DNA from: Eledone cirrhosa
Lineage: Eukaryota
Direction of reading: 5' to 3'
Assembly: GCA_964016885.1 (NCBI GenBank)
Contig: CAXHJY010000226.1
Location: forward strand, 1-64,000
DNA length: 64,000 nt
The position numbers and the translations under genes were made by a program. Each line of letters begins with the position of its first letter. Position 1 is the stretch's first letter. Under the pieces are notes generated by a model. The model saw nothing but the letters and a program-made list of their open reading frames with translations. It was not told where the DNA came from and did not search any database. Positions 3,048 to 64,000 of this stretch are shown piece by piece.

Positions 3048-3930
3048 GTCATATGAATATATATCTCATATGAAATAAAACAGCCAATTTTCCACGCAAT
3101 ACTTTTAGTTAGCACCCCGAACGCATAATTGGGAATATAATCACTTATTTCCTAATGTTTGTTGAGTGTGTTGGAATTTGGCCGGAGTATCGCTAAAAAG
3201 CTTTCTCCGATATTGTATTTATTTATTTACTCTTGGCGCAGCAGAATCGAAATAATTCCCGGTATAAGGTTAGCATTTCTTTGTTTATTTTTTATATATG
3301 AATATTGATTGTTCCTTATATCTCATTCCGTTAATTTGCCCGAGAAAATATGTGTGTGTGATCAAATGTATTCACATAGATATTTTTTCAATTTCCAATT
3401 GAATTCTTAGCAAGTGGCCTGAATTTCTTTCAGAATTCATTGTCATGCGCATGTATTGTTTTTTTGGCGGTAATTTGCTTCCTTAATTTTTGAATCAGTT
3501 TGAGTACTTCTTTAGAACTGCTGGACTGGCACCTGACAGATACCTCTGGCACAGAGGATGATGATTATCGGTAAATACTGATGTCGGTTAGATTATCAAT
3601 ATTGGTATTATTGAGGCACCCACTGATGAATTATAGGAGCCCATTTGAATATATATCTATTGATCGTATACAAGCTCCTACATAAATTGGTATAATTTCA
3701 CCCAAATTGTAGGAATCCTATAATGAAACGAGACGTCCGTCTGGGAAAAAATATATAAGATATGTTTCATATGAAATAATACAGCCAATTTTCCACGCAA
3801 TACTTTTAGTTAGCACCCCGAACGCATAATTTGGAATATAATCACTTATTTCCTAATGTTTGTTGAGTGAGTTGGAATTTGGCCGGAGTATCGCTAAAAA
3901 GCTTTCTCCGATAGTGTATTTATTATTACA
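3048..3930 (+). mobile_element. PLE pLTR-like/retrozyme-like repeat, family A (~700-bp unit, ~1.25 units)
   Basis: The segment atgaaata..acagccaattttccacgcaatac...gtatttatt occurs at ~3070 and again at ~3771. Contains an HHR fold and is flanked by (TA)n. Confidence 0.75.
3619..3745 (+). ncRNA. Type I hammerhead ribozyme with a large branched stem II (family A)
   Basis: ccca-CTGATGA-attatagga[~77 nt]tcctataat-GAAAC-g-agacgtc-c-GTC-tggg. Confidence 0.8.
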
Positions 3931-3940
3931 TATACATATG

Positions 3941-6579: not shown

Positions 6580-6717
6580 TTATATATATATACATATATA
6601 TATATACATATATATATATACATATAGATATACATATATATATATATACATATATATATACATATTTATATATACATATATATATATATATATACATTTT
6701 ATATATATATACATATA

Positions 6718-7910
6718 TATGTCCAATATTGCTGTCACTGGAAAGCTGCTGCAGTGGATCAAGAGCTTCCTGTCAAACAGAACCCAACATGTTGTAGTTG
6801 AAGGAGTCAAATCCAGCCCAGCCAAAGTCAGTAGTGGGGTCCCACAAGGCACTGTGTTGGGCCCACTTCTCGTCATCATCTATATTAATGACATCACTGA
6901 CATCATCAAACACAGCAACATTAAAATTTTCGCTGATGATTCCAAGCTCCAAAAGGTCATCAATGGCGTGGATGACCGGATAAGCCTTCAGTCAGACCTA
7001 CTGGCTGTTACCCAATGGGCGGAAAAGAACAACATGTTACTGAACGAAGACAAATTCGAACTGATCCACTTTGGAAAAGAGGATGCTCTGAAACTCCCGT
7101 ACTCCCTTCCCTCCGGGGAAACTCTCGTGGCATTAACAACATCAGAGACTTGGGAGTAACTGTGGACAGCAACAAAAGCTGGGCTACGCATATAAGCTGC
7201 AAAGTTGACATGGCCCGCAGAATGTGTTCCTGGATCCTCAGAACCTTCCAGTCGAGAGATTCCCACACCATTATCCTTCTCTTCTCTACTTTTGCCCGAC
7301 CACACCTTGAATACTGTTGTCCACTGTGGTCTCTCCACACGAAACAAAGTATCATGAAACTTGAAGCTCCTCAAAGGGCAAACGAAAAAGATAGATGGCA
7401 TGTCAGACCTTGACTACTGGGGTCGACTAGAAAAGCTGAAACTTTACTCACTCCAACGTCGCCGTGAGCGTTATATTATCTGCATGATGTGGAAAATGTT
7501 CCATCATCACTGCCCAAATGATGTTGGCATCGCCTTCAAGATACACCCAAGGCTTGGGCCCCGTGCTATCCGTCCCATACAAAAATCTAAATCGCAACTC
7601 ATAACAACAATACGGCACAATTATTTCCCCTCAATTGGCCCTGCTCTCTTCAACATCACACCAGGACACGTCAAAACAGAAAACTGACCACACAAAATTC
7701 AAGAAGTCTTTGGACAAATTCCTCCAAGTAAACCCGGACAAACCACCCACACCCGGATATGTCTCCGCAAACAGTAATTCTCTTCTCGAATGGGCCATGG
7801 TGCCCAAATCCTGAATTGAAAGACTTCGCCAGGTGGTGCTATTAAGTTATACATGGCCTGGGCCAATACTGGCCAAAACATTTCAAAGTTATTCAAAGTT
7901 AATCAAAGTT
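6718..7910 (+). mobile_element. 5'-truncated CR1/L2-group LINE (RT C-terminal half), frameshifted
   Basis: [18 protein letters not shown] and [11 protein letters not shown] motifs spread over three frames; (ttcaaagtta)n 3' tail. Confidence 0.9.
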
Positions 7911-7922
7911 ATATATATACAT

Positions 7923-9331
7923 ATTGGCGCAGCAGATTCGAAAAGATTCCCGGTATATGGTTAGCATTTCTTTGTTTATTTTTTATATATGAATATTGAT
8001 TGTTCCTTATATCTCATTCTGTTATCTTGACCAAGAAAATATCTGTGTGTGTCATCAAATGTTCTACACACATAGATATTTTTTCAATTTCCAATTGAGT
8101 TCTTAGCACGTGGCCTGAATTTCTTTCAGAATTCATTGTCATGCGCATGTATTGTTTTTTTGGCGGTAATTTGCTTCCTCATTTTTTGAATCAGTTTAAG
8201 CACTTCTTTAGAACTGCTGGACTGGCAATCTGACAGATACCTCAGGCACAGAGGATGATGATTATCGCTAAATACTGATGTTGGTTAGATTATCAATATT
8301 AGTATTATTGGGGTACCCACTGATGAATTATAGGAGCACACTAGAATATATATCTATTGATGGTATACAAGCTCCTACATAAATTGGTATAATTTCACCC
8401 AAATTGTAGTAATCCTATAATGAAACGAGACGTCCGTCTGGGAAGAGATATATTAGATATGACTCATATGAAATATAACAGCCAATTTTCCACGCAATAC
8501 TTTTAGTTAGCACCCCGAACCCATAATTGGGAATATAATCACTTATTTCCTAATGTTTGTTGAGTGTGTTGGAATTTGGCCGGAGTATCGCTAAAAAGTT
8601 TTCTCCGATATTGTATTTATTTATTTACTCTTGGCGCAGCAGAATCGAAATAATTCCCGGTATAAGGTTAGTATTTCTTTGTTTATTTTTTATATATGAA
8701 TATTGATTGTTCCTTATATCTCATTCTGTTATTTTGCCCGAGAAAATATCTGTGTGTGTGATCAAATGTTGTATTCACATAGATATTTTTTCAATTTCCA
8801 ATTGAGTTCTTAGCACGTGGGCTGAATTCCTCTCAGAATTCATTGTCATGCGCATGTATTGTATTTTTTGGCGGTAATTTGCTTCCTTATTTTTGAAACA
8901 GTTTGAGTACTTCTTTAGAACTGCTGGACTGGCAACCTGACAGATATTTCAGGCACAGAGGATAATGATTATCGCTAAATACTGATGTTGGTTAGATTAT
9001 CAATATTAGTATTATTGGGGAACCCACTGATGAATTATAGGAGCCCGCTTGAATATGTATCTATTGATGGTATACAAGCTCCTACATAAATTGGTATAAT
9101 TTCACCAAATTGTAGGAATCCTATAATGAAATGAGACGTCCGTCTGGGAAAAAATATATTAGATATGTCTCATGAGAAATAATACAATCAATTTTCCACG
9201 CAATACTTTTAGTTAGCACCCCGAACGCATAATTGGGAATATAATCACTTATTTCCTAATGTTTGTTGAGTGAGTTGGAATTTGGCCGGAGTATCGCTAA
9301 AAAGCTTTCTCCGATAGTGTATTTATTATTA
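7923..9331 (+). mobile_element. Family A repeat, two tandem ~705-bp units, each with an HHR (8316-8442, 9023-9148)
   Basis: Diverged copies of 3048-3930 with the same 3' end (gtatttattattac) and HHR cores retained. Confidence 0.8.
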
Positions 9332-9381
9332 CATATACATATGTATATATGTATATATGTATATATATATATATATATATT

Positions 9382-10627: not shown

Positions 10628-11446
10628 AATTAAGTTAAAAATGTACATCCACATATGTATACTGAAATACTAGTATGCATATGAATACACACACGTGTAC
10701 ATATGTAGATGTACTGAGTTTTTCACTGGACACTTTACTGTGAGTGTCCAGCTATTCTGTATGTAAACACACAGACAAACCGAATAGCTGGACACTCACA
10801 GTAAAGTTTCCAGTAAAAAACTCGGTACATCTACATATGTACACGTGTGTGTATTCATATGCATACTAGTATTTCAGTATACATATGTGGATGTACATTT
10901 TTAACTTAATTGTTTAAGCGTCAGTCATACAAAAGTGAGTTACAAACGAAACGAAATTTAATTTCGTTTTGTTATTTGTTTTTATCGTCTCAGCTGAACC
11001 GGTACGTACTCACGCTCTATGCAAATTAGTCTGCCCACTACTAATTTTCATAGAAAAAGCATATAACGATATGTGCTTTTACGATTCTCTAGAAAGGCCG
11101 GAGGATAGGTAAATATTGCTGATGAGATTTAACAACATCGAAACTAGTCCAATATTCTGTCTGGCTTTCTGGAGAATAGAGGAAAGGTGTTTCCTCGAAA
11201 ACCAGTATGACTCTAAAAACCGGTTTGTCTGTGTGTTTATATACAGAATAGCTGGACACTCACAGTAAAGTGTCCAGTGAAAAACTCGGTACATCTCCAT
11301 ATGTACACGTGTGTGTATTCATATGCATACTAGTATTTCAGTATACATATGTGGATGTACATTTTTAACTTAATTGTTTAAGCGACAGTCATACAAAAGT
11401 GAGTTACAAACGAAACGAAATTTAATTTCGTTTCGTTATTTGTTTT
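10628..11446 (+). mobile_element. Diverged family B (467-bp) insertion: short inverted arm (10628-10782) plus ~1.4 direct units
   Basis: Homologous to the 21426-28116 array; orientation switch at ~10782. Confidence 0.85.
11112..11156 (+). ncRNA. Minimal type I hammerhead ribozyme (family B variant, GUC site)
   Basis: aatattg-CTGATGA-gat(ttaacaac)atc-GAAAC-ta-GTC-caatatt. Confidence 0.85.
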
Positions 11447-11505
11447 CATATATATATACATATATATATATATACATATATATATATACATATATATATA
11501 TATAC

Positions 11506-14775: not shown

Positions 14776-14832
14776 CATATTTATATATACATATATATAT
14801 ATACATATATATGTATATATATATACATATAT

Positions 14833-16015
14833 ATGTCCAATATTGGTGTCACTGGAAAGCTGCTGCAGTGGATCAAGAGCTTCCTGTCAAACAGAACCCA
14901 ACATGTTGTAGTTGAAGGAGTCAAATCCAGCCCAGCCAAAGTTAGTAGTGGGGTCCCACAAGGCACTGTGTTGGGCCCACTTCTCTTCATCATCTATACT
15001 AATGACATCACTGACATCATCAAACACAGCAACATTAAAATTTTCACTGATGATTCCAAGCTCCAAAAGGTCATCAATGGCGTGGATGACCGGATAAGCC
15101 TTCAGTCAGACCTACTGGCTGTTACCCAATGGGCGGAAAAGAACAACATGTTACTGAACGAAGACAAATTCGAACTGATCCACTTTGCAAAAGAGGATGC
15201 TCTGAAACTCCCGTACTCCCTTCCCTCCGGGGAAATTCTCGTGGCATCTAACAACATCAGAGACTTGGGAGTAACTGTGGACAGCAACATAAGCTGGGCC
15301 ACGCATATAAGCAGCAAAGTTGACATGGCCCGCAGAATGTGTTCCTGGATCCTCAGAACCTTCCAGTCGAGAGATTCCCACACCATTATCCTTCTCTTCT
15401 CTACTTTTGCCCGACCACACCTTGAATACTGTTGTCCACTGTGGTCTCCCCACACGAAACAAAGTATCATGAAACTTGAAGCTCCTCAAAGGGCAATCAC
15501 GAAAAAGATAGATGGCATGTCAGACCTTGACTACTGGGGTCGACTAGAAAAGCTGAAACTTTACTCACTCCAACGTCGCCGTGAGCGTTATATTATCTGC
15601 ATGATGTGGAAAATGTTCCATCATCACTGCCCAAATGATGTTGGCATCGCCTTCAAGATACACCCAAGGCTTGGGCCCCGTGCTATCCGCCCCATACAAA
15701 AATCTAAATCGCAACTCATAACAACAATACGGCACAATTATTTCCCCTCAATTGGCCCTGCTCTCTTCAACATCACACCAGGACACGTCAAAACAGAAAC
15801 TGACCACACAAAATTCAAGAAGTCTTTGGACAAATTCCTCCAAGTAAACCCGGACAAACCACCCACACCCGGATATGTCTCCGCAAACAGTAATTCTCTT
15901 CTCGAATGGGCCATGGTGCCCAAATCCTGAATTGAAAGACTTCGCCAGGTGGTGCTATTAAGTTATACATGGCCTGGGCCAATACTGACCAAAACATTTC
16001 AAAGTTATTCAAAGT
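14833..16015 (+). mobile_element. 5'-truncated CR1/L2-group LINE, open RT C-terminal frame to 15930
   Basis: Near-identical to 6718-7910 with the same 5' breakpoint; [10 protein letters not shown] and FTDDSKL motifs; ttcaaagtta tail. Confidence 0.9.
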
Positions 16016-16114
16016 TATATATATACATATTTATATATACATAAATATATATATATATATATACATATATATATACATATACATATATATATATACATAT
16101 ACATATATATATAC

Positions 16115-17424: not shown

Positions 17425-17845
17425 CATAGGTATATACATGCATACATACATACACATATATATACACACACATATACACTTATATATACATATAATTATT
17501 GGGGGGTGGGGGTTAAATTTATTAGTGAGAAATAGTAAATATATATAGTTTTCAAGGAACATAGAGTCATAACCTGAAGTTAAAGCAATATATATGTTTA
17601 CTTAATGGTATCAGTTTTAGGAAATGATATTTGTAAGAAGGAAAGCAAAATTATGTAGTTCATCAGTAGTAGAATATTAATTATAGGTTAACTAAATTAA
17701 AAATAGTATTATATTAATTTCTAAAGTGTATATTAAATAGGTTTATAATTTTTAAAGCAAAATTATGTAGTTCATCAGTAGTAGAATATTAATTATAGGT
17801 TAACTAAATTAAAAATAATATATAAATTAATTTCTAAAGTGTATA

Positions 17846-18410
17846 TTAATTAGGTTTATAATATTTAAAGATTTTTCTCAGTTTATGATTACACGATATT
17901 ATTAATTCCTGTCGCTTATTTAATAGGATATCCTTAGATTTCATTATTTCAAAAAGTTCTTGGGAACATAATCTACATTCATTTCTACTATTTTGATAAG
18001 GGGTGGCCCTTTTGAGCACACTCCAGGTCAGGTCATATTCTATATTCCTCTTTCTATAGCTATTTATTATTTGAGCTAGAGATGTTGTATTAGCTAGTGC
18101 GGCATTTTTAAAACTATGTTTGTGGGTATTAAATCTTACCTTAAATTTGTTAGAGGTAGCTCCTATATATGAATAAATTGAGTCCTTAGTGTTAACTTTA
18201 CATTTATATACTATGATATTAACAAGGCAATTTCCTTTTAATGGACAGTTTGCCTTGTTTCTACAGTTACAACTTTTCGTGAATCCTGTATCTGAGGAGA
18301 TATTATGGTTAGTTTGATGTACTGGTGGTATACTCATATATGCATTATAGGCACTTATATTTTGTTTTATGTTTTTGGTTGTTGAGTAGGAGAATTTAAC
18401 CGTTGATCTA
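17846..18410 (-). pseudogene. Penelope-like GIY-YIG endonuclease domain, 5'-truncated (Neptune-like)
   Basis: [20 protein letters not shown]...YIGAT, RFNTH and CRLC..E...LLNKRQE...CNH motifs. Confidence 0.88.
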
Positions 18411-18418
18411 TTTATACA

Positions 18419-19871: not shown

Positions 19872-21160
19872 AGTATATAAGGGAGAGGATCAGGAGTGTG
19901 TAACACTCCACTTATCCAATAGGCAGTATAAGGTTAGCTCGATGTCTGAGGACAGAGCCGTAATATAATTAACAACAAAGAACGCTTAGAGCATAGGTAT
20001 ATCTTTACTTGCTGACAGTGTTTCGTCCACACTATAAGTGGGACTCATCAGAGCATAAAGAGTGATTACATATTACACAAGCAATAACAAATCCAAGACA
20101 TTGAAGAAATAAAAAATAAACATTGAACAATAAGCATCGAAAAATAAGAGGTGCTATCAGTCACAGTTGGGCAGGGTGCTGTTAACATACAAGCATACAC
20201 ATAAGCATGAGCACCTGCATGCAACCACGCAACAGGCAGCCATATGCAACACATATAGTATAGACTAATACAAATAACATATCATGGACGAGTATGCAAA
20301 AGCTAAGAGATGAATGGTGGATATACAATGGGTAAAAATACAATGGGTAAAAGTAAGATAAACAAAGGATAAAAATAGATTAACCATAGATAAAAAATAT
20401 AGATATACCATAGATGAAAAATAGATTAACCATGGATAAGAGATAGAGAATAGATAAGGAATAGACAAGAATAGATAAGATAGATAGGAGAAGATAAAAA
20501 TAGATGAAAAATAGACAAATAATATATATAAAAAATATAAAAAATATATATAAAATATACAGATAATAGAGATAAAGGGTAAAGAATAAAATAAAATAAA
20601 ATAAAATTATATAAAATAAAATACAATGAAATAAAATAAAATAAAGTAAAGTGAGATAAGATATATATTTTTTGAATATATTTCTTGAATATATCAGGGG
20701 CACACGAACGCCTTAAGTGTTACAGTTATCCATATCACAACAATCAAATGCTCAAATGAGATTTATAATCAACTGGTGCCATGTCCACACTCGATTGAGT
20801 TGACCATTGCAATGGAGACATCCCAGGTTGGGCAGTCACATAAGTTCACACTCGAAAGTCACGGGTGTGCATTCACACAGTTGAGCGGTGGGGCAATCAC
20901 AAAAGGTTCACACTCGGGCGGGAATCCATTGGTCAACAGAGGTATATCCACATCACTAGCAAGGACGTATGCAAGGAAGGTAGGTAAATTCACATGCAGC
21001 AGCAGGAACATCCATGGGCAGATAACTGAGTGTCACGAAGTCACAAGGTAGCAAGCAAAATCGTTTACATCAACATGAACATCAAGAGGCAGATAAGTGG
21101 GCCGAAAGCAAGCAAGTGCAGGTGGGGAAGAGATGCATGTCCACACGTGTAGTCGCCCGA
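19872..21160 (-). mobile_element. HHR-bearing pLTR-like element (family E) with an unassigned upstream segment
   Basis: Homologous, inverted, to 50120-50862; HHR at 20003-20060. Confidence 0.7.
20003..20060 (-). ncRNA. Minimal type I hammerhead (family E)
   Basis: ctttatgct-CTGATGA-gtcc(cacttatagtgt)ggac-GAAAC-act-GTC-agca-agtaaag. Confidence 0.85.
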
Positions 21161-21185
21161 TATATGTATATACATATATATATAC

Positions 21186-21246
<61 letters not shown>

Positions 21247-21425
21247 CACATATATATATATACACACATATATATATATACATATATATATATATACATA
21301 TATATATATACATCTATATATACATATATATATATAAATATATATATATATACATATACACATATATATATATACATATATATATACATATATATATATA
21401 CACACATATATATAAATATATATAT

Positions 21426-23261
21426 ATAAAAACAAATAACGAAACGAAATTAAATTTTGTTTCATTTGTAACTCACTTTTGTATGACTGACGCTTAAACA
21501 ATTAAGTTAAAGATGTACATCCATATATGTATACTGAAATACTAGTATGTATATGAATACACACACGTATACATATGTAGATGTACCAAGTTTTTTCACT
21601 GGTCACTTTACTGTGAGTGGCCAGCTATTCTGTATGTAAACACACAGACAAACCGGTTTTTAGAGTCATACTGGTTTTTGAGGAAACACCTTTCCTCTAT
21701 TCTCCAGAAAGCCAGACAAGGAATATTGAACTAGTTTCGTTGTTGTTACAACTCATCAGCAATATTTACCTATCTTCCGGCCTCTCTAGAGAATCGTAAA
21801 AGCACATATCGTTATATGCTTTTTCTATGAAAATTAGTAGTGGGCATACTAATTTGCATAGAGTGTGAGTAAGTACCGGTTCAACGGAGACGATAAAAAC
21901 AAATAACGAAACGAAATTAAATTTTGTTTCATTTGTAACTCACTTTTGTATGACTGACGCTTAAACAATTAAGTTAAAGATGTACATCCATATATGTATA
22001 CTGAAATACTAGTATGTATATGAATACACACACGTATACATATGTAGATGTACCAAGTTTTTTCACTGGTCACTTTACTGTGAGTGGCCAGCTATTCTGT
22101 ATGTAAACACACAGACAAACCGGTTTTTAGAGTCATACTGGTTTTTGAGGAAACACCTTTCCTCTATTCTCCAGAAAGCCAGACAAGGAATATTGAACTA
22201 GTTTCGTTGTTGTTACAACTCATCAGCAATATTTACCTATCTTCCGGCCTCTCTAGAGAATCGTAAAAGCACATATCGTTATATGCTTTTTCTATGAAAA
22301 TTAGTAGTGGGCATACTAATTTGCATAGAGTGTGAGTAAGTACCGGTTCAACGGAGACGATAAAAACAAATAACGAAACGAAATTAAATTTTGTTTCATT
22401 TGTAACTCACTTTTGTATGACTGACGCTTAAACAATTAAGTTAAAGATGTACATCCATATATGTATACTGAAATACTAGTATGTATATGAATACACACAC
22501 GTATACATATGTAGATGTACCAAGTTTTTTCACTGGTCACTTTACTGTGAGTGGCCAGCTATTCTGTATGTAAACACACAGACAAACCGGTTTTTAGAGT
22601 CATACTGGTTTTTGAGGAAACACCTTTCCTCTATTCTCCAGAAAGCCAGACAAGGAATATTGAACTAGTTTCGTTGTTGTTACAACTCATCAGCAATATT
22701 TACCTATCTTCCGGCCTCTCTAGAGAATCGTAAAAGCACATATCGTTATATGCTTTTTCTATGAAAATTAGTAGTGGGCATACTAATTTGCATAGAGTGT
22801 GAGTAAGTACCGGTTCAACGGAGACGATAAAAACAAATAACGAAACGAAATTAAATTTTGTTTCATTTGTAACTCACTTTTGTATGACTGACGCTTAAAC
22901 AATTAAGTTAAAGATGTACATCCATATATGTATACTGAAATACTAGTATGTATATGAATACACACACGTATACATATGTAGATGTACCAAGTTTTTTCAC
23001 TGGTCACTTTACTGTGAGTGGCCAGCTATTCTGTATGTAAACACACAGACAAACCGGTTTTTAGAGTCATACTGGTTTTTGAGGAAACACCTTTCCTCTA
23101 TTCTCCAGAAAGCCAGACAAGGAATATTGAACTAGTTTCGTTGTTGTTACAACTCATCAGCAATATTTACCTATCTTCCGGCCTCTCTAGAGAATCGTAA
23201 AAGCACATATCGTTATATGCTTTTTCTATGAAAATTAGTAGTGGGCATACTAATTTGCATA
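21426..23261 (-). repeat. 467-bp HHR satellite, left arm (3.9 units; HHRs at 21722, 22189, 22656, 23123)
   Basis: Exact 467-bp period, also visible in the ORF track; HHR on the minus strand. Confidence 0.95.
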
Positions 23262-26200
23262 CTCAAAAACCAGTATGACTCTAAAAACCGGTTTGTCTGT
23301 GTGTTTACATACAGAATAGCTGGCCACTCACAGTAAAGTGACCAGTGAAAAAACTTGGTACATCTACATATGTATACGTGTGTGTATTCATATACATACT
23401 AGTATTTCAGTATACATATATGGATGTACATCTTTAACTTAATTGTTTAAGCGTCAGTCATACAAAAGTGAGTTACAAATGAAACAAAATTTAATTTCGT
23501 TTCGTTATTTGTTTTTATCGTCTCCGTTGAACCGGTACTTACTCACACTCTATGCAAATTAGTATGCCCACTACTAATTTTCATAGAAAAAGCATATAAC
23601 GATATGTGCTTTTACGATTCTCTAGAGAGGCCGGAAGATAGGTAAATATTGCTGATGAGTTGTAACAACAACGAAACTAGTTCAATATTCCTTGTCTGGC
23701 TTTCTGGAGAATAGAGGAAAGGTGTTTCCTCAAAAACCAGTATGACTCTAAAAACCGGTTTGTCTGTGTGTTTACATACAGAATAGCTGGCCACTCACAG
23801 TAAAGTGACCAGTGAAAAAACTTGGTACATCTACATATGTATACGTGTGTGTATTCATATACATACTAGTATTTCAGTATACATATATGGATGTACATCT
23901 TTAACTTAATTGTTTAAGCGTCAGTCATACAAAAGTGAGTTACAAATGAAACAAAATTTAATTTCGTTTCGTTATTTGTTTTTATCGTCTCCGTTGAACC
24001 GGTACTTACTCACACTCTATGCAAATTAGTATGCCCACTACTAATTTTCATAGAAAAAGCATATAACGATATGTGCTTTTACGATTCTCTAGAGAGGCCG
24101 GAAGATAGGTAAATATTGCTGATGAGTTGTAACAACAACGAAACTAGTTCAATATTCCTTGTCTGGCTTTCTGGAGAATAGAGGAAAGGTGTTTCCTCAA
24201 AAACCAGTATGACTCTAAAAACCGGTTTGTCTGTGTGTTTACATACAGAATAGCTGGCCACTCACAGTAAAGTGACCAGTGAAAAAACTTGGTACATCTA
24301 CATATGTATACGTGTGTGTATTCATATACATACTAGTATTTCAGTATACATATATGGATGTACATCTTTAACTTAATTGTTTAAGCGTCAGTCATACAAA
24401 AGTGAGTTACAAATGAAACAAAATTTAATTTCGTTTCGTTATTTGTTTTTATCGTCTCCGTTGAACCGGTACTTACTCACACTCTATGCAAATTAGTATG
24501 CCCACTACTAATTTTCATAGAAAAAGCATATAACGATATGTGCTTTTACGATTCTCTAGAGAGGCCGGAAGATAGGTAAATATTGCTGATGAGTTGTAAC
24601 AACAACGAAACTAGTTCAATATTCCTTGTCTGGCTTTCTGGAGAATAGAGGAAAGGTGTTTCCTCAAAAACCAGTATGACTCTAAAAACCGGTTTGTCTG
24701 TGTGTTTACATACAGAATAGCTGGCCACTCACAGTAAAGTGACCAGTGAAAAAACTTGGTACATCTACATATGTATACGTGTGTGTATTCATATACATAC
24801 TAGTATTTCAGTATACATATATGGATGTACATCTTTAACTTAATTGTTTAAGCGTCAGTCATACAAAAGTGAGTTACAAATGAAACAAAATTTAATTTCG
24901 TTTCGTTATTTGTTTTTATCGTCTCCGTTGAACCGGTACTTACTCACACTCTATGCAAATTAGTATGCCCACTACTAATTTTCATAGAAAAAGCATATAA
25001 CGATATGTGCTTTTACGATTCTCTAGAGAGGCCGGAAGATAGGTAAATATTGCTGATGAGTTGTAACAACAACGAAACTAGTTCAATATTCCTTGTCTGG
25101 CTTTCTGGAGAATAGAGGAAAGGTGTTTCCTCAAAAACCAGTATGACTCTAAAAACCGGTTTGTCTGTGTGTTTACATACAGAATAGCTGGCCACTCACA
25201 GTAAAGTGACCAGTGAAAAAACTTGGTACATCTACATATGTATACGTGTGTGTATTCATATACATACTAGTATTTCAGTATACATATATGGATGTACATC
25301 TTTAACTTAATTGTTTAAGCGTCAGTCATACAAAAGTGAGTTACAAATGAAACAAAATTTAATTTCGTTTCGTTATTTGTTTTTATCGTCTCCGTTGAAC
25401 CGGTACTTACTCACACTCTATGCAAATTAGTATGCCCACTACTAATTTTCATAGAAAAAGCATATAACGATATGTGCTTTTACGATTCTCTAGAGAGGCC
25501 GGAAGATAGGTAAATATTGCTGATGAGTTGTAACAACAACGAAACTAGTTCAATATTCCTTGTCTGGCTTTCTGGAGAATAGAGGAAAGGTGTTTCCTCA
25601 AAAACCAGTATGACTCTAAAAACCGGTTTGTCTGTGTGTTTACATACAGAATAGCTGGCCACTCACAGTAAAGTGACCAGTGAAAAAACTTGGTACATCT
25701 ACATATGTATACGTGTGTGTATTCATATACATACTAGTATTTCAGTATACATATATGGATGTACATCTTTAACTTAATTGTTTAAGCGTCAGTCATACAA
25801 AAGTGAGTTACAAATGAAACAAAATTTAATTTCGTTTCGTTATTTGTTTTTATCGTCTCCGTTGAACCGGTACTTACTCACACTCTATGCAAATTAGTAT
25901 GCCCACTACTAATTTTCATAGAAAAAGCATATAACGATATGTGCTTTTACGATTCTCTAGAGAGGCCGGAAGATAGGTAAATATTGCTGATGAGTTGTAA
26001 CAACAACGAAACTAGTTCAATATTCCTTGTCTGGCTTTCTGGAGAATAGAGGAAAGGTGTTTCCTCAAAAACCAGTATGACTCTAAAAACCGGTTTGTCT
26101 GTGTGTTTACATACAGAATAGCTGGCCACTCACAGTAAAGTGACCAGTGAAAAAACTTGGTACATCTACATATGTATACGTGTGTGTATTCATATACATA

Positions 26201-28116
26201 CTAGTATTTCAGTATACATATATGGATGTACATCTTTAACTTAATTGTTTAAGCGTCAGTCATACAAAAGTGAGTTACAAATGAAACAAAATTTAATTTC
26301 GTTTCGTTATTTGTTTTTATCGTCTCCGTTGAACCGGTACTTACTCACACTCTATGCAAATTAGTATGCCCACTACTAATTTTCATAGAAAAAGCATATA
26401 ACGATATGTGCTTTTACGATTCTCTAGAGAGGCCGGAAGATAGGTAAATATTGCTGATGAGTTGTAACAACAACGAAACTAGTTCAATATTCCTTGTCTG
26501 GCTTTCTGGAGAATAGAGGAAAGGTGTTTCCTCAAAAACCAGTATGACTCTAAAAACCGGTTTGTCTGTGTGTTTACATACAGAATAGCTGGCCACTCAC
26601 AGTAAAGTGACCAGTGAAAAAACTTGGTACATCTACATATGTATACGTGTGTGTATTCATATACATACTAGTATTTCAGTATACATATATGGATGTACAT
26701 CTTTAACTTAATTGTTTAAGCGTCAGTCATACAAAAGTGAGTTACAAATGAAACAAAATTTAATTTCGTTTCGTTATTTGTTTTTATCGTCTCCGTTGAA
26801 CCGGTACTTACTCACACTCTATGCAAATTAGTATGCCCACTACTAATTTTCATAGAAAAAGCATATAACGATATGTGCTTTTACGATTCTCTAGAGAGGC
26901 CGGAAGATAGGTAAATATTGCTGATGAGTTGTAACAACAACGAAACTAGTTCAATATTCCTTGTCTGGCTTTCTGGAGAATAGAGGAAAGGTGTTTCCTC
27001 AAAAACCAGTATGACTCTAAAAACCGGTTTGTCTGTGTGTTTACATACAGAATAGCTGGCCACTCACAGTAAAGTGACCAGTGAAAAAACTTGGTACATC
27101 TACATATGTATACGTGTGTGTATTCATATACATACTAGTATTTCAGTATACATATATGGATGTACATCTTTAACTTAATTGTTTAAGCGTCAGTCATACA
27201 AAAGTGAGTTACAAATGAAACAAAATTTAATTTCGTTTCGTTATTTGTTTTTATCGTCTCCGTTGAACCGGTACTTACTCACACTCTATGCAAATTAGTA
27301 TGCCCACTACTAATTTTCATAGAAAAAGCATATAACGATATGTGCTTTTACGATTCTCTAGAGAGGCCGGAAGATAGGTAAATATTGCTGATGAGTTGTA
27401 ACAACAACGAAACTAGTTCAATATTCCTTGTCTGGCTTTCTGGAGAATAGAGGAAAGGTGTTTCCTCAAAAACCAGTATGACTCTAAAAACCGGTTTGTC
27501 TGTGTGTTTACATACAGAATAGCTGGCCACTCACAGTAAAGTGACCAGTGAAAAAACTTGGTACATCTACATATGTATACGTGTGTGTATTCATATACAT
27601 ACTAGTATTTCAGTATACATATATGGATGTACATCTTTAACTTAATTGTTTAAGCGTCAGTCATACAAAAGTGAGTTACAAATGAAACAAAATTTAATTT
27701 CGTTTCGTTATTTGTTTTTATCGTCTCCGTTGAACCGGTACTTACTCACACTCTATGCAAATTAGTATGCCCACTACTAATTTTCATAGAAAAAGCATAT
27801 AACGATATGTGCTTTTACGATTCTCTAGAGAGGCCGGAAGATAGGTAAATATTGCTGATGAGTTGTAACAACAACGAAACTAGTTCAATATTCCTTGTCT
27901 GGCTTTCTGGAGAATAGAGGAAAGGTGTTTCCTCAAAAACCAGTATGACTCTAAAAACCGGTTTGTCTGTGTGTTTACATACAGAATAGCTGGCCACTCA
28001 CAGTAAAGTGACCAGTGAAAAAACTTGGTACATCTACATATGTATACGTGTGTGTATTCATATACATACTAGTATTTCAGTATACATATATGGATGTACA
28101 TCTTTAACTTAATTGT
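23262..28116 (+). repeat. 467-bp HHR satellite, right arm (10.4 units; HHRs at 23645+467n, n=0-9)
   Basis: Reverse complement of the left-arm unit with a 467-bp period. Confidence 0.95.
23645..23689 (+). ncRNA. Minimal type I hammerhead (family B, representative of 14 copies)
   Basis: aatattg-CTGATGA-gttg(taacaa)caac-GAAAC-ta-GTT-caatatt; stem III is the palindrome aactagtt. Confidence 0.88.
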
Positions 28117-28154
28117 ATATATATATATATATATATATACATATATATATGTAC

Positions 28155-28185
<31 letters not shown>

Positions 28186-28404
28186 TACATATATATATAT
28201 ATATACATACATATATATATATATACATATATATATATATGTATATACATATATATATATACATATATACATATATATATATACATATATATACAAATAT
28301 ATATACATATACATATATATATATATATATATACATATATATATACATATATATACACATATCTAAATATATATACATATATATAAATATATATATATAC
28401 ACAC

Positions 28405-28435
<31 letters not shown>

Positions 28436-28461
28436 CATTTATATATATATATATATATACA

Positions 28462-30324: not shown

Positions 30325-30340
30325 CATATAAATATATATT

Positions 30341-30688
30341 GATATTGTTATACTTTGGGAGGGTCATGTTGCCAATAAGAAACACACACAGAAACAAAAT
30401 GGCGTAGGATAGAAGAAAGGAAAGGCACAGAAACAAAGAAAGGAATCCCCAGTCACTGAAGAGGTCACAGAGTGTGTGACGAAAGGACTATGACTATATA
30501 TAAACAACTATCTGGTTGTGGAACCAACCAACCAACCAGAAATTTATAGGTTTGTAAATTTATAAATTTATAAATATATAATAAATTGAAGTGAAATCAA
30601 CTGGTGCGTGTGTTTCTTATTGGCAACATGACCCTCCCAAAGTATAACAATATCGGTTTCAACACACGATTTCAATTAAAGAATCTTA
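30341..30688 (+). mobile_element. ~345-bp mini element (family F): 47-bp inverted repeats, 3' tail and internal HHR at 30451-30495; further copies at 32390, 40347, 42633, 44937, 48524 and 52768
   Basis: gatattgttatactttgggagggtcatgttgccaataagaaacacac at 30341 with its reverse complement at 30608-30654; agtca-CTGAAGA-g-gtcaca(gagtg)tgtgac-GAAA-ggac-TA-tgact. Confidence 0.8.
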
Positions 30689-30727
30689 TATAGATACATA
30701 TATATATATACATATATATATTTATAC

Positions 30728-48507: not shown

Positions 48508-48876
48508 CATATAAATATATATTGATATTGTTATACTTTGGGAGGGTCATGTTGCCAATAAGAAATACACACAGAAACAAAATGGCGTAGGATAGAAGAA
48601 AGGAAAGGCACAGAAACAAAGAAAGGAATCCCCAGTCACTGAAGAGGTCACAGAGTGTGTGAAGAAAGGACTATGACTATATATAAACAACTATCTGGTT
48701 GTGGAACCAACCAACCAGAAATTTATAGGTTTGTAAATTTATAAATTTATAAATATATAATAAATTGAAGTGAAATCAACTGGTGCGTGTGTTTCTTATT
48801 GGCAACATGACCCTCCCAAAGTATAACAATATCGGTTTCAACACACGATTTCAGATAAAGAATCTTATATAGATAC

Positions 48877-50119: not shown

Positions 50120-50862
50120 TAATAAATTTATTTAATTACATTTAATTACATTTAATTATACATTTAATTATATCTTATATTATATTATTTTAATTTAGTC
50201 TATGTTATTTGATTTTAGTTTACCTTATTTTATCTTATTTTACGATTATATTATATTATGTTCTATGTATATAATTTTTAATTTTTAATTTTATATTATT
50301 TTATCTCATTCCTTACCCTATATTTTATATGTAAGTTTGTTATGTATTTCTTTGTATTTCTTTTTATATATATTATAAGTCTGTTTTTCACCTATTTTTT
50401 ACCTATTTTTTACCTACTCTTACCTAATCCCATTATCTTATCTACTCTTGTCTGTTCTCTTATCCATGTGTCTACTCTTGTCTGTTCTCTTATCCATGTG
50501 TATGCTTGTATGTAACTATATGTTGACAGCACCCCGCCCAACTGTGACTGATAGCACCCCTTATTTTTATTTTTATTTTTACTTTTATTTTTATTCTTAT
50601 CCTCTATCGTCTATTATTACCTTTCATTCTTCAATGTCTTGGATTTGTTATTGCTTGTATGGTATGTAATTAACCTTTATGCTCTGATGAGTCCCACTTA
50701 TAATGCGGATGAAACAATGTTAGCAAGTAAAGATATGCATATGCTATAAGCGTTCTTTGTTATTTATTAATTATATTACGGCTCTGTCCTCAGACATTGA
50801 GCTAACCTCATACTGCCTGCTGGATAAGTGGAGTGTTATACACCCCTGATCCTTTCCCTAGC
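50120..50862 (+). mobile_element. Family E pLTR-like copy with HHR at 50675-50732
   Basis: tgct-CTGATGA-gtcc(cacttataatgc)ggat-GAAAC-aat-GTT-agca; homologous to 19872-20200. Confidence 0.75.
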
Positions 50863-50934: not shown

Positions 50935-51310
50935 GGAAAGTTATATTTAAATTGTTGGGTTACAACTAGTAAATATTTATAACTGATATAAAAGCACTCA
51001 ACAAGTATTTGGAGTATATTTACGATATTAAATAAATGGAAACTATATTTATAAAACCATATTTATTTCATTATATATATTTCAGGGATAACATATTAAC
51101 AATATGTTATGCCTTCTTCAGACAAAATACAATATAGACAGTTTTATAGATAAACAGATTTGACATACCGTTCAACATCGACTTGAACGGTATGTCAAAT
51201 CTATTTATCTATAAAACTGTCTATATTGTATTTTGTCTGAAGAAGGCATAACATATTGTTAATATGTTATCCCTGAAAAATTTAAATATAGTTTCCATTT
51301 ATTTAATATC

Positions 51311-52751: not shown

Positions 52752-53123
52752 CATATAAATATATATTGATACTGTTATACTTTGGGAGGGTCATGTTGCC
52801 AATAAGAAACACACACAGAAACAAAATCGCGTAGGATAGAAGAAAGGAAAGGCACTGAAACAAAGAAGGAATCCCCAGTCACTGAAGAGGTCACAGAGTG
52901 TGTGACGAAAGGACTATGACTATATATAAACAACTATCTGGTTGTAGAACCAACCAACCAACCAGAAATTTATAGGTTTGTAAATTTATAAATTTATAAA
53001 TATATAATAAATTGAAGTGAAAGCAGCTGGTGCGTGTGTTTCTTATTGGCAACATGACCCTCCCAAAGTATAACAATATCGGTTCCAACACACGATTTCA
53101 GATAAAGAATCTTATATAGATAC

Positions 53124-53529: not shown

Positions 53530-53571
<42 letters not shown>

Positions 53572-54063
53572 CAGGAAAGAAGGTTTACATGGTTTGCTAT
53601 ACAAAAAAGTTTTTAATCACATAGCTTACATTTGTTTCACTGAACTGGTATGTCTAGAGATCGCTATCCGCCTAATTTTGCGTCACTCGATCGCCAATAC
53701 AGAATTATAACCAGTCAGATCTTCGGAGCATGCGAGAATGAAGAAAATACACAGGCAAGAAAATAAAAGAAAATATGGAGTAGTTATGGCATTCAATTAG
53801 AACAATAAACAACAACAATTATTACAACAATGCTATCAATAAACTATTTAAGGAGACCCTGACATTACTTAGGTGGGGGGTATATAATGTATCTAATGTT
53901 ACGGCGTGAAAACCAGAACCAGCTGTCATAAGGCAAAAAGTATCGTAGTGTGTATCAATTTTAAATTATCTTCAACCGTATACATGAGTGGGACCACTGT
54001 CAAAGCTCAATAGTTGTAGAGTTAATACAGAGGTTAACGAATTAATATACGCATATATCTACG

Positions 54064-54095
<32 letters not shown>

Positions 54096-54664
54096 AATAT
54101 AAATACATATACACATATATGTGTACATAGACACATACATACACACTAATATACACTCGTACAAAAATATACATACATGCAAAGAGAAAAGCGTGCTAAT
54201 TGTAATATGGCAAAAAGAAGGTAAAGTAACATTGTAGTAGTGAAATGAGAAAAACTAGGATCTAGGATCAAATGATTGCAGCAGCTGAGAAGGAGTAAGA
54301 TTGTTGGTAGATGAGGTATTTACAGACTATTGTGTGGTATAGACTTGTGAAGGAAATAGTATACTTAATGAATATATATTTTTTTTGTGGGTAGTAGGTA
54401 TCCTAATTTAAAGCTATGTTATGTTGGTTCGATTCACGGAGGTTTGAATCTTATGAATTTAGTGGCTATTCTATGCCTGCAGAAGATAGATCTTTCTAAC
54501 TTATTATTAAGTAGTCTTTTAACATTTCTAAGGATATACAATAGCTCAAGATCACACAGCCCGCAATAGGACATACCTGTACTATAGGTTTTAGCAGCCG
54601 ACAACTTCGACCAGTTGATAGTGTAGCTAGCGTTGCTGTCCTTCAATTCCCATATTTTTCTGGC

Positions 54665-55988
54665 GACACGTTACTTATAGCTAGGAACCTAAACAACCAG
54701 AGCTTGGAAAGACTAAGGAAAAATATTAGAATATTCTTCAAAAAACTAGGCCTAAGTATTACCTACGAACTAAACCATAAGAAGGTAAATTTTCTAGATG
54801 TAACTCTAAATCTAAATACTGGATTAATAGAACCTTTCCACAAAAATAATGAAAATCTTGCCTACATTAGTTACAACTCAAATCACCCCAAATCCATAAT
54901 TAAATCCATAGCACGTAGTATATCCCTCCGAATATCCCGCCTATCCTCAAACCTAGAAATCTTTAACGAGCATGCTGACTATTATAATGCAGCATTAAGT
55001 AGGGCCGGTCATAAAGATAAACTACAGTATATAGTGAATAAGGACAACATAAACAATCCTAGTAATTTCTACTCCAACCGCTCACATAATAATAAGAATA
55101 GCTTGACTAGACATAGGGTTAGACATGTAACACCTAGAGTAAACGGCCAAAACACTAATAACGTAAACCCTAGAAACAATAGAAGAAACAGACAAAGGAA
55201 ATACCTATGGTTCAACCCAATATTCAACTCCTCTATAAAAACTAGACTGCCCTCTATATTCTTTAAACTAATAGATAAACACTTCCCTATCTCGCATAGA
55301 TATCACAAACTACTCAATAGATCTACTATAAAACTCTCTTTTCAACAGCAGCTAACATAGAATCACACATACGCAAGATCAACCGCAGAAATATCTCAAG
55401 TAAATCAATTGCACCTATACATAAGCACAAACTCATCACAACATCACAACCACAAGCGCATACAAACGCGCAGCAGCAAAACCCCATTGGGCATATATCA
55501 CAACCCACTTATAACAGGGTACTAAATAGGAATGTAAAAGCTGCACATAATAGCGCCTCAAACTGCAACTGTCACCTCCCAGATAGGTGCCCATTGGCGA
55601 ATAGATGTCTCGATTCGAGTCTGGTGTACATGTGCACTGTCATCTCGGGTAACTCCACTTGGATTACATAGGATCCACCGCGGGTTCTTTTAAGAAAAGA
55701 TGGTATGTGCACAGGCACTCGATGAAAAACCGAGCTCTTATGGGTTCCACCACCCTCGCCAGAAAAATATGGGAATTGAAGGACAGCAACGCTAGCTACA
55801 CTATCAACTGGTCGAAGTTGTCGGCTGCTAAAACCTATAGTACAGGTATGTCCTATTGCGGGCTGTGTGATCTTGAGCTATTGTATATCCTTAGAAATGT
55901 TAAAAGACTACTTAATAATAAGTTAGAAAGATCTATCTTCTGCAGGCATAGAATTGCCACTAAATTCATAAGATTCAAACCTCCGTGA
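54665..55988 (+). pseudogene. Penelope-like RT C-terminus, linker and GIY-YIG; 5'-truncated, frameshifts near 55340 and 55658
   Basis: VNFLDVTLNL, SNHP, WFNP, CNC...CP...C, LVY...YIGST and CGLC..E...FCRH motifs. Confidence 0.9.
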
Positions 55989-56326
55989 ATCGAACCAACA
56001 TAACATAGCTTTAAATTAGGATACCTACTACCCACAAAAAAAATATATATTCATTAAGTATACTATTTCCTTCACAAGTCTATACCACACAATAGTCTGT
56101 AAATACCTCATCTACCAACAATCTTACTCCTTCTCAGCTGCTGCAATCATTTGATCCTAGATCCTAGTTTTTCTCATTTCACTACTACAATGTTACTTTA
56201 CCTTCTTTTTGCCATATTACAATTAGCACGCTTTTCTCTTTGCATGTATGTATATTTTTGTACGAGTGTATATTAGTGTGTATGTATGTGTCTATGTACA
56301 CATATATGTGTATATGTATTTATATT

Positions 56327-56375
<49 letters not shown>

Positions 56376-56696
56376 GTAGATATATGCGTATATTAATTCG
56401 TTAACCTCTGTATTAACTCTACAACTATTGAGCTTTGACAGTGGTCCCACTCATGTATACGGTTGAAGATAATTTAAAATTGATACACACTACGATACTT
56501 TTTGCCTTATGACAGCTGGTTTTCACGCCGTAACATTAGATACATTATATACCCCCCACCTAAGTAATGTCAGGGTCTCCTTAAATAGTTTATTGATAGC
56601 ATTGTTGTAATAATTGTTGTTGTTTATTGTTCTAATTGAATGCCATAACTACTCCATATTTTCTTTTATTTTCTTGCCTGTGTATTTTCTTCATTC

Positions 56697-56814
56697 TCGC
56701 ATGCTCCGAAGATCTGACTGGTTATAATTCTGTATTGGCGATCGAGTGACGCAAAATTAGGCGGATAGCGATCTCTAGACATACCAGTTCAGTGAAACAA
56801 TGTAAGCTATGTGA
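56697..56814 (+). ncRNA. Hammerhead with CCGAAGA core and long stem II (inverted copy at 53617-53735)
   Basis: tcgcatgct-CCGAAGA-tctgactggt...accagttcagt-GAAAC-aat-GTA-agctatgtga. Confidence 0.65.
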
Positions 56815-57031
56815 TTAAAAACTTTTTTGTATAGCAAACCATGTAAACCTTCTTTCCTGATTTATTATTACTCCAAGTGTTTACAACATAGGAATTACAG
56901 CATACCCGCAGCATCACTATGAAAACGCTTGTTGAGTCAAACCAAGCCAAGCGTTAATACCATCCACTACCTGGAATACCATAACTGGACTTCACCTAAG
57001 TGGACTGCATTTAACTATTATTTGTTAATCC

Positions 57032-64000
<6,969 letters not shown>

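Follow-up and report, generated by a model that had tools for sequence, protein, structure and literature searches.

The 64,000-nucleotide stretch analysed here (hereafter the window; positions 1 to 64,000 of the forward strand of contig CAXHJY010000226.1, Eledone cirrhosa assembly GCA_964016885.1) contains at 21426–28116 an array of 467-bp units that carry a hammerhead ribozyme. Our analysis identified this array as a member of a dispersed family, most probably of retrozymes without long terminal repeats (non-LTR retrozymes), and not as a lone satellite; the class of element is itself already known. Most two-armed copies of the family lie back to back, which suggests that an enzyme of the type encoded by Penelope-like elements (PLEs) uses both ends of a DNA cut to copy a single RNA. 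We regard two-ended insertion of the PLE type as very probable, and its combination with a circular template as probable with a wider margin of doubt. The complete reading, i.e. a non-LTR retrozyme that would use the reverse transcriptase (RT)/GIY-YIG protein of a PLE for two-ended copying of a circle, is on the available sequences the one that we favour, with similar reserve.

Both arms of the array match one 467-bp unit without a single mismatch (21426–23261 and 23262–28116), copy number and join being as assembled. With unit positions numbered from window position 23262, the left arm (21426–23261, minus strand, 1,836 bp) comprises 3.93 identical units with four hammerheads, and its 3' end at unit position 257 faces left into a (TA)n target tract (21160–21428); the right arm (23262–28116, plus strand, 4,855 bp) comprises 10.40 identical units with ten hammerheads, and its 3' end at unit position 185 faces right into the other portion of the tract (28116–28460). 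The arms, both truncated at the 5' end, meet head-to-head at 23261/23262 (unit positions 290 and 1), bluntly, with neither filler nor overlap. An initial annotation of the window had described about 14 apparently identical 467-bp units, each with a hammerhead, and an inversion at this very point, and our mapping agrees with it in these respects, with 14 CUGAUGA...GAAA cores (10 on the plus and 4 on the minus strand). It had also placed both outward ends in (TA)n, which is correct, but the ends are not equivalent; we denote the left type L (long) and the right type S (short). The "tail" of about 70 nt between the two sites (unit positions 186–257) is terminal on the L arm only (21426–21497, minus strand), and it also occurs inside every unit, e.g. 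at 23447–23518. The putative target-site duplication of about 12 bp would occupy 21417–21428 and 28116–28127 (plus strand); the left copy is pure TA and hence just consistent with the rule observed in the family.

In the 3.0-Gb genome of the same species a 34-nt core pattern gave 7,713 matches and a looser pattern 8,396, against none for controls. L ends number 1,151 + 1,185 = 2,336 genome-wide (controls 0), a count that corresponds to at least 2,336 dispersed insertions, and S ends about 2,100 (1,067 on the strand without multiple counting; controls 0). The insertions that we mapped, 66 in 64 stretches, are a non-random sample: 12 were chosen for identity to the array unit and about 20 for identity to a 469-bp subfamily that is 88% identical to it, the remainder were mostly the first listed on contig C1, and nearly all were required to contain a hammerhead. 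No LTR was found in the mapped insertions, and some loci of this dispersed, high-copy family hold at least two consecutive intact hammerheads. The term "satellite" in the initial annotation does not describe the nature of the element, which forms a dispersed family with a median arm of about 1.1–1.4 units. The unit and its tandem joint are also present in contigs of four public sequencing runs (four studies, kind of run unrecorded); in one such contig (TA)n begins at 23518, the L site, although this run may be the source of the window itself.

Back-to-back inversion is the rule for the family. All 49 two-armed loci are head-to-head with their 3' ends outward, and 40 of them combine an L end (255–258) with an S end (182–189), the others being one LL locus, one SS locus and seven with a different or cut-off end. 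A count based on the ends alone and covering the initial 78 Mb of C1, which is independent of the ribozyme and overlaps the mapped set, yielded 37 LS, two SS and no LL pairs among 39 (P 1.4e-9 versus free choice). In 39 of the 40 L+S loci the last bases of the left flank (its 3' end) recur as the first bases of the right flank (its 5' end) over at least 12 nt, while shuffled flank pairings fall below 12 nt 16.5 times on average (P 5e-5). The modal duplication is 12 nt, overlaps with both element ends, of up to 5 nt each, being counted in; nine loci show an interrupted 12–13-mer, two of them interrupted in ambiguous end bases. As both 3' hydroxyls would serve as primers and the target is duplicated, the cut probably leaves 3' overhangs. 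Filler is absent from 29 of the 49 joins, 15 of which show an overlap of at least 2 nt (18% by chance), and 20 joins contain 1–51 unassigned bases, some of these probably being mapping failures. Judged from the sequences, a footprint of inverted arms with a one-sided tail is that of PLEs, and the Hydra-like PLEs of the same genome show it too. The suggestion, already made in the initial annotation, of a non-coding hammerhead retrozyme mobilized by a PLE and primed from both target ends gains support from this family-wide footprint, with its inverted arms, one-sided tail of about 70 nt, duplication of about 12 bp and (TA)n target.

Comparison of the two arms of each insertion (46 pairs with an overlap of at least 100 nt) revealed that they usually represent one haplotype: 35 pairs have no discordant recurrent site, ten have one or two, and only locus L079 has six. 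Six arm pairs share alleles that occur nowhere else in the sample, and at a locus of 20 units four private alleles are found in every unit of both arms.

In the mechanism that we envisage, arrays would be transcribed, consecutive hammerheads would cut after unit position 421, and the 467-nt monomer would be closed to a circle. A PLE protein would nick both strands of (TA)n about 12 bp apart, and the footprint points to 3' overhangs mostly ending in ATA. From each overhang, cDNA synthesis would be primed on the sense RNA, through 1–3 nt of pairing, at an internal site that is fixed for that end, as the footprint of the ends indicates directly, with the L start at 257 (RNA ...UUUUUAU) and the S start at 182–189, in and beside a small predicted hairpin loop. 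One end that is nearly always L and another that is S, usually of one haplotype, would be expected of a dimer holding one RNA. Each polymerase would then read independently through the ribozyme site and cover between 0.1 and more than 10 units; the cDNA ends would be joined head-to-head, often via the microhomology or short filler seen at the joins, and second strands would be filled in. Join and fill-in would yield the inverted arms, the one-sided tail and the duplication of about 12 bp, and long arms may grow later through DNA-level duplication. A more specific model, possible but one that we would not yet call probable, has the dimer cut (TA)n with a 3' stagger of about 12 nt and hold one circular RNA via a conserved element of about 45 nt, so that two polymerases would start 70 nt apart, each rolling round the circle and displacing the cDNA of the other, before the ends are joined. 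If true, such a mechanism would explain by a single route why all endonuclease-bearing (EN+) PLEs have inverted arms, partial tandems and a tail on one side, and it would provide genomic evidence for ribozyme-made RNA circles as retrotransposition templates in animals.

A number of points speak against this scheme. Cleavage, transcript, circle and partner PLE are all putative. BLAST finds a single arm in 17 of the 66 insertions, in three of which a short second arm, complementary in class to the first, is nevertheless present. The sister arm is uniquely closest in only 17 of the 46 pairs, another locus being equally close in the other 29, partly because many loci were chosen for near-identity. 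L079 is the sole insertion with different haplotypes in its arms, and hence one RNA per insertion is not obligatory; arms of the same haplotype could also descend from a single source locus that dominates in a given cell, or result from conversion of one arm by the other. In long arrays some variants are common to only a subset of units, 26 within an arm and four across arms in three loci, from which it follows that DNA-level expansion occurs. Conservation of the ribozyme core within the family is partly a product of our search patterns, and three PLE families of the same genome (H1, H2 and H3, described below) have no genuine sequence similarity to it. According to the available text of PMC11167929, the one PLE tested in vitro, that of the anole, needs no hammerhead cleavage there, has unprocessed RNA as its main template and uses start sites that are alike between strands. 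In what is accessible of the data on Xenopus retrozymes, eight of nine dimers did not cleave in vitro.

It is possible, though in our view rather unlikely, that the template is an uncleaved linear multimer. Insertion would still be two-ended, of the PLE type, at L and S; homogeneous source arrays would be remade by unequal DNA exchange, and the ribozyme would act elsewhere or be a passenger. Such a template would agree with the preference of the anole enzyme for unprocessed RNA (PMC11167929, in the text available) and with DNA-level expansion as seen in the subset variants, including the four found in some units of both arms at three loci, and like a circle it predicts no pile-up of copies at the cleavage site. 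However, the 39 multi-copy insertions comprise 25 distinct haplotypes, each fixed across units even in inserts of 2–4 units, and on linear multimers this would need a bottleneck of one unit in most generations. Moreover, the daughters of linear multimers could only be shorter than their parents, and core and stems are retained in a sister family, R2, that is 62% identical to the unit.

A cleaved linear monomer, from whose 5' end the polymerase would jump precisely to a 3' end to generate tandems, would likewise fix one haplotype across units, and one of the 248 unit copies that cross the cleavage site (in L080) has a lesion exactly there. Copies of such a template would end at 422, yet of 98 5' break points just one falls 5 nt or less from that site (2.3 expected), an indel is found nearby in no more than four of the 248 crossings, and in an unbiased genome-wide test 11 copies start at the cleavage site, compared with 15 at a control site, i.e. 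without any excess. We therefore consider precise jumping improbable; the absence of a pile-up at the cleavage site fits a circle and an uncleaved multimer alike.

The inverted arms could alternatively arise from one-ended priming followed by fold-back self-priming, which is the model proposed for inverted PLEs in the accessible part of PMC3846280, or from a later inverted duplication of DNA. This would account for the identical haplotypes of both arms; a few joins lie at the centre of a palindrome (L033, L092), 13 of the 98 break points fall in the 214–246 hairpin (6.9 expected), and the LL and SS loci, which have mirrored flanks, resemble fold-backs made later at the DNA level. But the lengths of the two arms are uncorrelated (rho 0.06) and either may be the longer (the S arm in 16 of the 40 L+S loci), while the 5' break points are at most 35 nt apart in only seven of these 40 loci (6.1 expected by chance), both of which argue against self-priming; furthermore, the second arm has a fixed end site of its own, next to duplicated target. 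Fold-back is very improbable as a general explanation and can be regarded as largely refuted at most loci. An ordinary satellite or an assembly artefact at the array, for which one could invoke the identity of 14 out of 14 units, as consensus polishing might favour, and a join known from the assembly alone, is hardly credible given the same plan on many contigs with differing break points and haplotypes and the unit with its tandem joint in the public-run contigs mentioned above.

The hammerhead of the first plus-strand copy (23634–23705) has its core at 23652–23658 and 23673–23682, with predicted cleavage after 23682 (unit position 421); the GUU triplet had been placed correctly, with 23682 as its last base. 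Helix I, of 6–7 bp, is extended by a UAA bulge and another helix; helix II (4 bp) carries a loop of 6 nt, and helix III is formed by a palindrome of 2 bp. The available text of PMC4209133 describes canonical metazoan type I hammerheads as having a helix I of about 6 bp, a helix II of 4 bp, a helix III of 1–2 bp with a palindromic loop and a full core, and the minimal hammerheads of PLEs (min-HHR) as having a helix II of 7–8 bp, a helix I of 4–5 bp and no helix III. By these definitions the array hammerhead is canonical type I and not a min-HHR; of the earlier description as a "minimal type I" ribozyme, the type, the 4-bp stem II and the palindromic stem III stand, and "minimal" has to be dropped. 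In an Rfam search across the whole window nothing reached the gathering score, and a relaxed threshold revealed Hammerhead_HH9 (RF02275), matched end to end with 37.7 bits (E 9e-8; gathering score 52). The array hammerhead resembles this model over the full length of the model, including the extended helix I and the bulge, and differs from it in the score below gathering and in the 2-bp palindrome of helix III. Rfam matches to miRNAs were dismissed as TA-rich noise.

The unit has a GC content of about 0.35, and its longest stop-free run is 62 codons. Its monomer is predicted to fold with -149.6 kcal/mol (z -8.8 versus shuffles), and constraining the predicted circular fold to contain the hammerhead costs little (-143.8 versus -145.3 kcal/mol), with pair probabilities of 0.63–0.99 for stems I and II. 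In these models the unit is highly self-paired and the hammerhead is free to fold. Six of 147 predicted pairs are altered on both sides among 20 copies, one of them in helix II. The 82 positions that vary between fixed haplotypes include none of the 16 core positions, whose invariance is partly forced by the search patterns, and none in 172–214, an interval picked post hoc. It takes in both the S site and a junction predicted in the fold, and is a candidate for binding a protein. Searches of the unit with simple motifs found no Pol III A or B box, TATA box or sense poly(A) signal, and our guess is that it is transcribed by read-through.

R2 has a unit of 427–431 bp, and its circular alignment to the 467-bp unit has 280 identities in 452 columns (62%) and a score of 188 (shuffles at most 48). 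The hammerhead core is kept, and in an alignment of five sequences five of its 14 pairs are changed on both sides. R2 has L and S ends of its own, about 56–60 nt apart, i.e. the same two-end plan. At first look R2 (L169–L197) has 3,760 candidates; its hammerhead carries GUA as the triplet, and a U.U mismatch lies where helix II begins, at its base.

The most likely helper, by analogy, is a borrowed PLE protein of the Hydra clade, and it can be proposed by kind only, because none of the PLEs tested has any sequence in common with the unit. A 5'-truncated Hydra-like PLE of family H1 lies in the window at 53567–57033, with an inverted short-end arm and a long-end arm, both in (TA)n, and a tail of about 170 nt; it represents the kind of element that may supply the protein. 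Elsewhere in the genome H1 has copies that are up to 99% identical and an intact 808-aa open reading frame (ORF), in which we recognized by eye RWK, DKT, a CxCx5C linker and CxxC + CxH around the terminal E/N. These motifs, along with insertion in (TA)n, are listed for the Hydra clade in the accessible sections of PMC8557442. Pfam and PDB sequence searches with the 808-aa protein gave no match, and its Atlas neighbours contain GIY-YIG/RVT_1. On sequence grounds H1 thus qualifies as a Hydra-clade PLE. Neither a motif scan nor Rfam found a hammerhead in its pseudo-LTR (pLTR), while family H3 carries a canonical one. Of 11 paired cases in H1 and H2, 10 combine a long with a short end, the eleventh pairing (L129) being doubtful; pure TA flanks or misplaced ends hide the length of any target duplication in these two families. 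Several further PLE families of the genome were viewed as single pieces only. The endonuclease region and part of the 3' untranslated region of the second Hydra-like family, H2, lie at 17497–18415 (minus strand).

We considered several candidates for a sequence link between the unit and these PLEs, and rejected them. The likeness of H1 to the unit is no more than TA-rich noise, so that H1 was dropped as a sequence-linked helper. A unit-like 3' end of H2 hinted at by L031 is missing from all 29 other H2 copies and belongs to an H2-R2 chimera, a weak hint at most: L031:1085–2771 consists of an inverted H2 long end, H2 body and an R2 arm that ends at the R2 long site, and it may have arisen when the polymerase switched between the RNAs of a PLE and a retrozyme. 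At L228 a junction of H3 and unit proved to be an insertion into H3 with a 9-nt microhomology join, as the rest of the H3 3' region resumes behind the unit. The 1,246-aa stop-free frame at 33789–37526 (minus strand), with APE and RT domains and C2H2 fingers, belongs to an RTE-like long interspersed nuclear element; given the PLE type of the footprint, we did not retain it as a helper.

With the metazoan non-LTR retrozymes described in the available text of PMC7229834 and bioRxiv 10.64898/2026.07.22.740005 the unit shares non-coding tandems with one type I hammerhead each, a GC content below 50%, high self-pairing, thousands of copies and co-existing PLEs, and like them it showed no LTR in the loci mapped. 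It agrees with the non-LTR retrozymes in every feature that could be checked, and from its sequence it appears to work like a non-autonomous PLE. Its 467 nt exceed the 170–400 nt given in PMC7229834 and fall within the 51–972 bp of the bioRxiv report. PLE mobilization of retrozymes is proposed in both sources and a circular template in PMC7229834, again as far as their accessible text goes, and the link between retrozymes and PLEs has so far consisted of co-occurrence and pLTR likeness. The same sections make no mention of inserts with two inverted arms, of 3' ends at fixed, paired sites, of a tail or of a duplication with a set length, all of which are found here. Xenopus retrozyme families, as described in the part available, have pLTR homology to PLEs, whereas the unit has none to the three PLE families checked. 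In the literature that we searched, in which subscription journals were thinly covered and supplements lay outside, we found no account of two-arm inverted retrozyme inserts or of near-obligate L+S pairing on one haplotype.

EN+ PLEs of the Hydra clade, according to the accessible portions of PMC8557442 and PMC3846280, show partial tandems, an inverted 5'-truncated copy, a tail at one end, a (TA)n target and microhomology joins, as does the family studied here. The same portions mention target duplications of 8–10 bp in rotifer PLEs and non-autonomous multicopy head-to-tail elements in Chlamydomonas, and PMC8557442 calls the origin of tandem and inverted PLE inserts undefined. The unit differs from EN+ PLEs in having no ORF, a tail of about 70 nt instead of 30–40, a duplication of about 12 bp, and in that the whole element is the repeat. 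The Poseidon PLE of the anole resembles it in vitro, in the available text of PMC11167929, in that both target strands are cut and extended, the target is AT-rich, a dimer is predicted, and two internal RNA start sites bracket the tail. For Poseidon, however, no difference in start site between strands and no priming homology is described there, whereas here the ends differ almost without exception and 1–3 nt pair. The family offers thousands of young, short, protein-free inserts in which PLE insertion rules can be counted, such as the pairing of L and S ends, the stagger of about 12 bp, one haplotype per event and the independence of arm lengths. With its 467-nt substrate, its start sites and its target, circular and linear templates could also be compared directly in vitro.

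Elsewhere in the window, a second insertion of the family, 94% identical, at 10628–11449 has the same two-armed shape as the main array, with an S arm at 10628–10782 (minus strand), an L arm at about 10782–11449 (plus strand) and one hammerhead at 11119. Among the mapped loci, the two-armed L073:7211–7773 has (ATG)n as its left and (CAT)n as its right flank in place of (TA)n, and an atypical end at 114. Two sequences of a further family (19880–20202 and 50496–50859) are 79% identical and each has a type I hammerhead-like motif (CUGAUGA; GUC or GUU triplet). Seven (TA)n elements of about 357 bp (30334–30691, 32383–32741, 40340–40694, 42626–42982, 44930–45286, 48517–48869 and 52760–53116), apparently within larger local duplications, each have one CUGAAGA hammerhead-like motif and 50-bp inverted ends. 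A 375-bp element (44063–44437, 46548–46921 and 50936–51310) contains an internal inverted repeat of about 210 bp with CUGAAGA...GAAA on both arms. Partial tandems of units of about 708 bp, in which a motif scan found no hammerhead, are inserted in (TA)n at 3056–3933 and 7909–9336, and another RT fragment is present in two copies (6717–7901 and 14831–16017). Three identical 236-bp inserts in (TA)n (58021–58256, 60201–60436 and 62431–62666) each start with a 76-bp palindrome.

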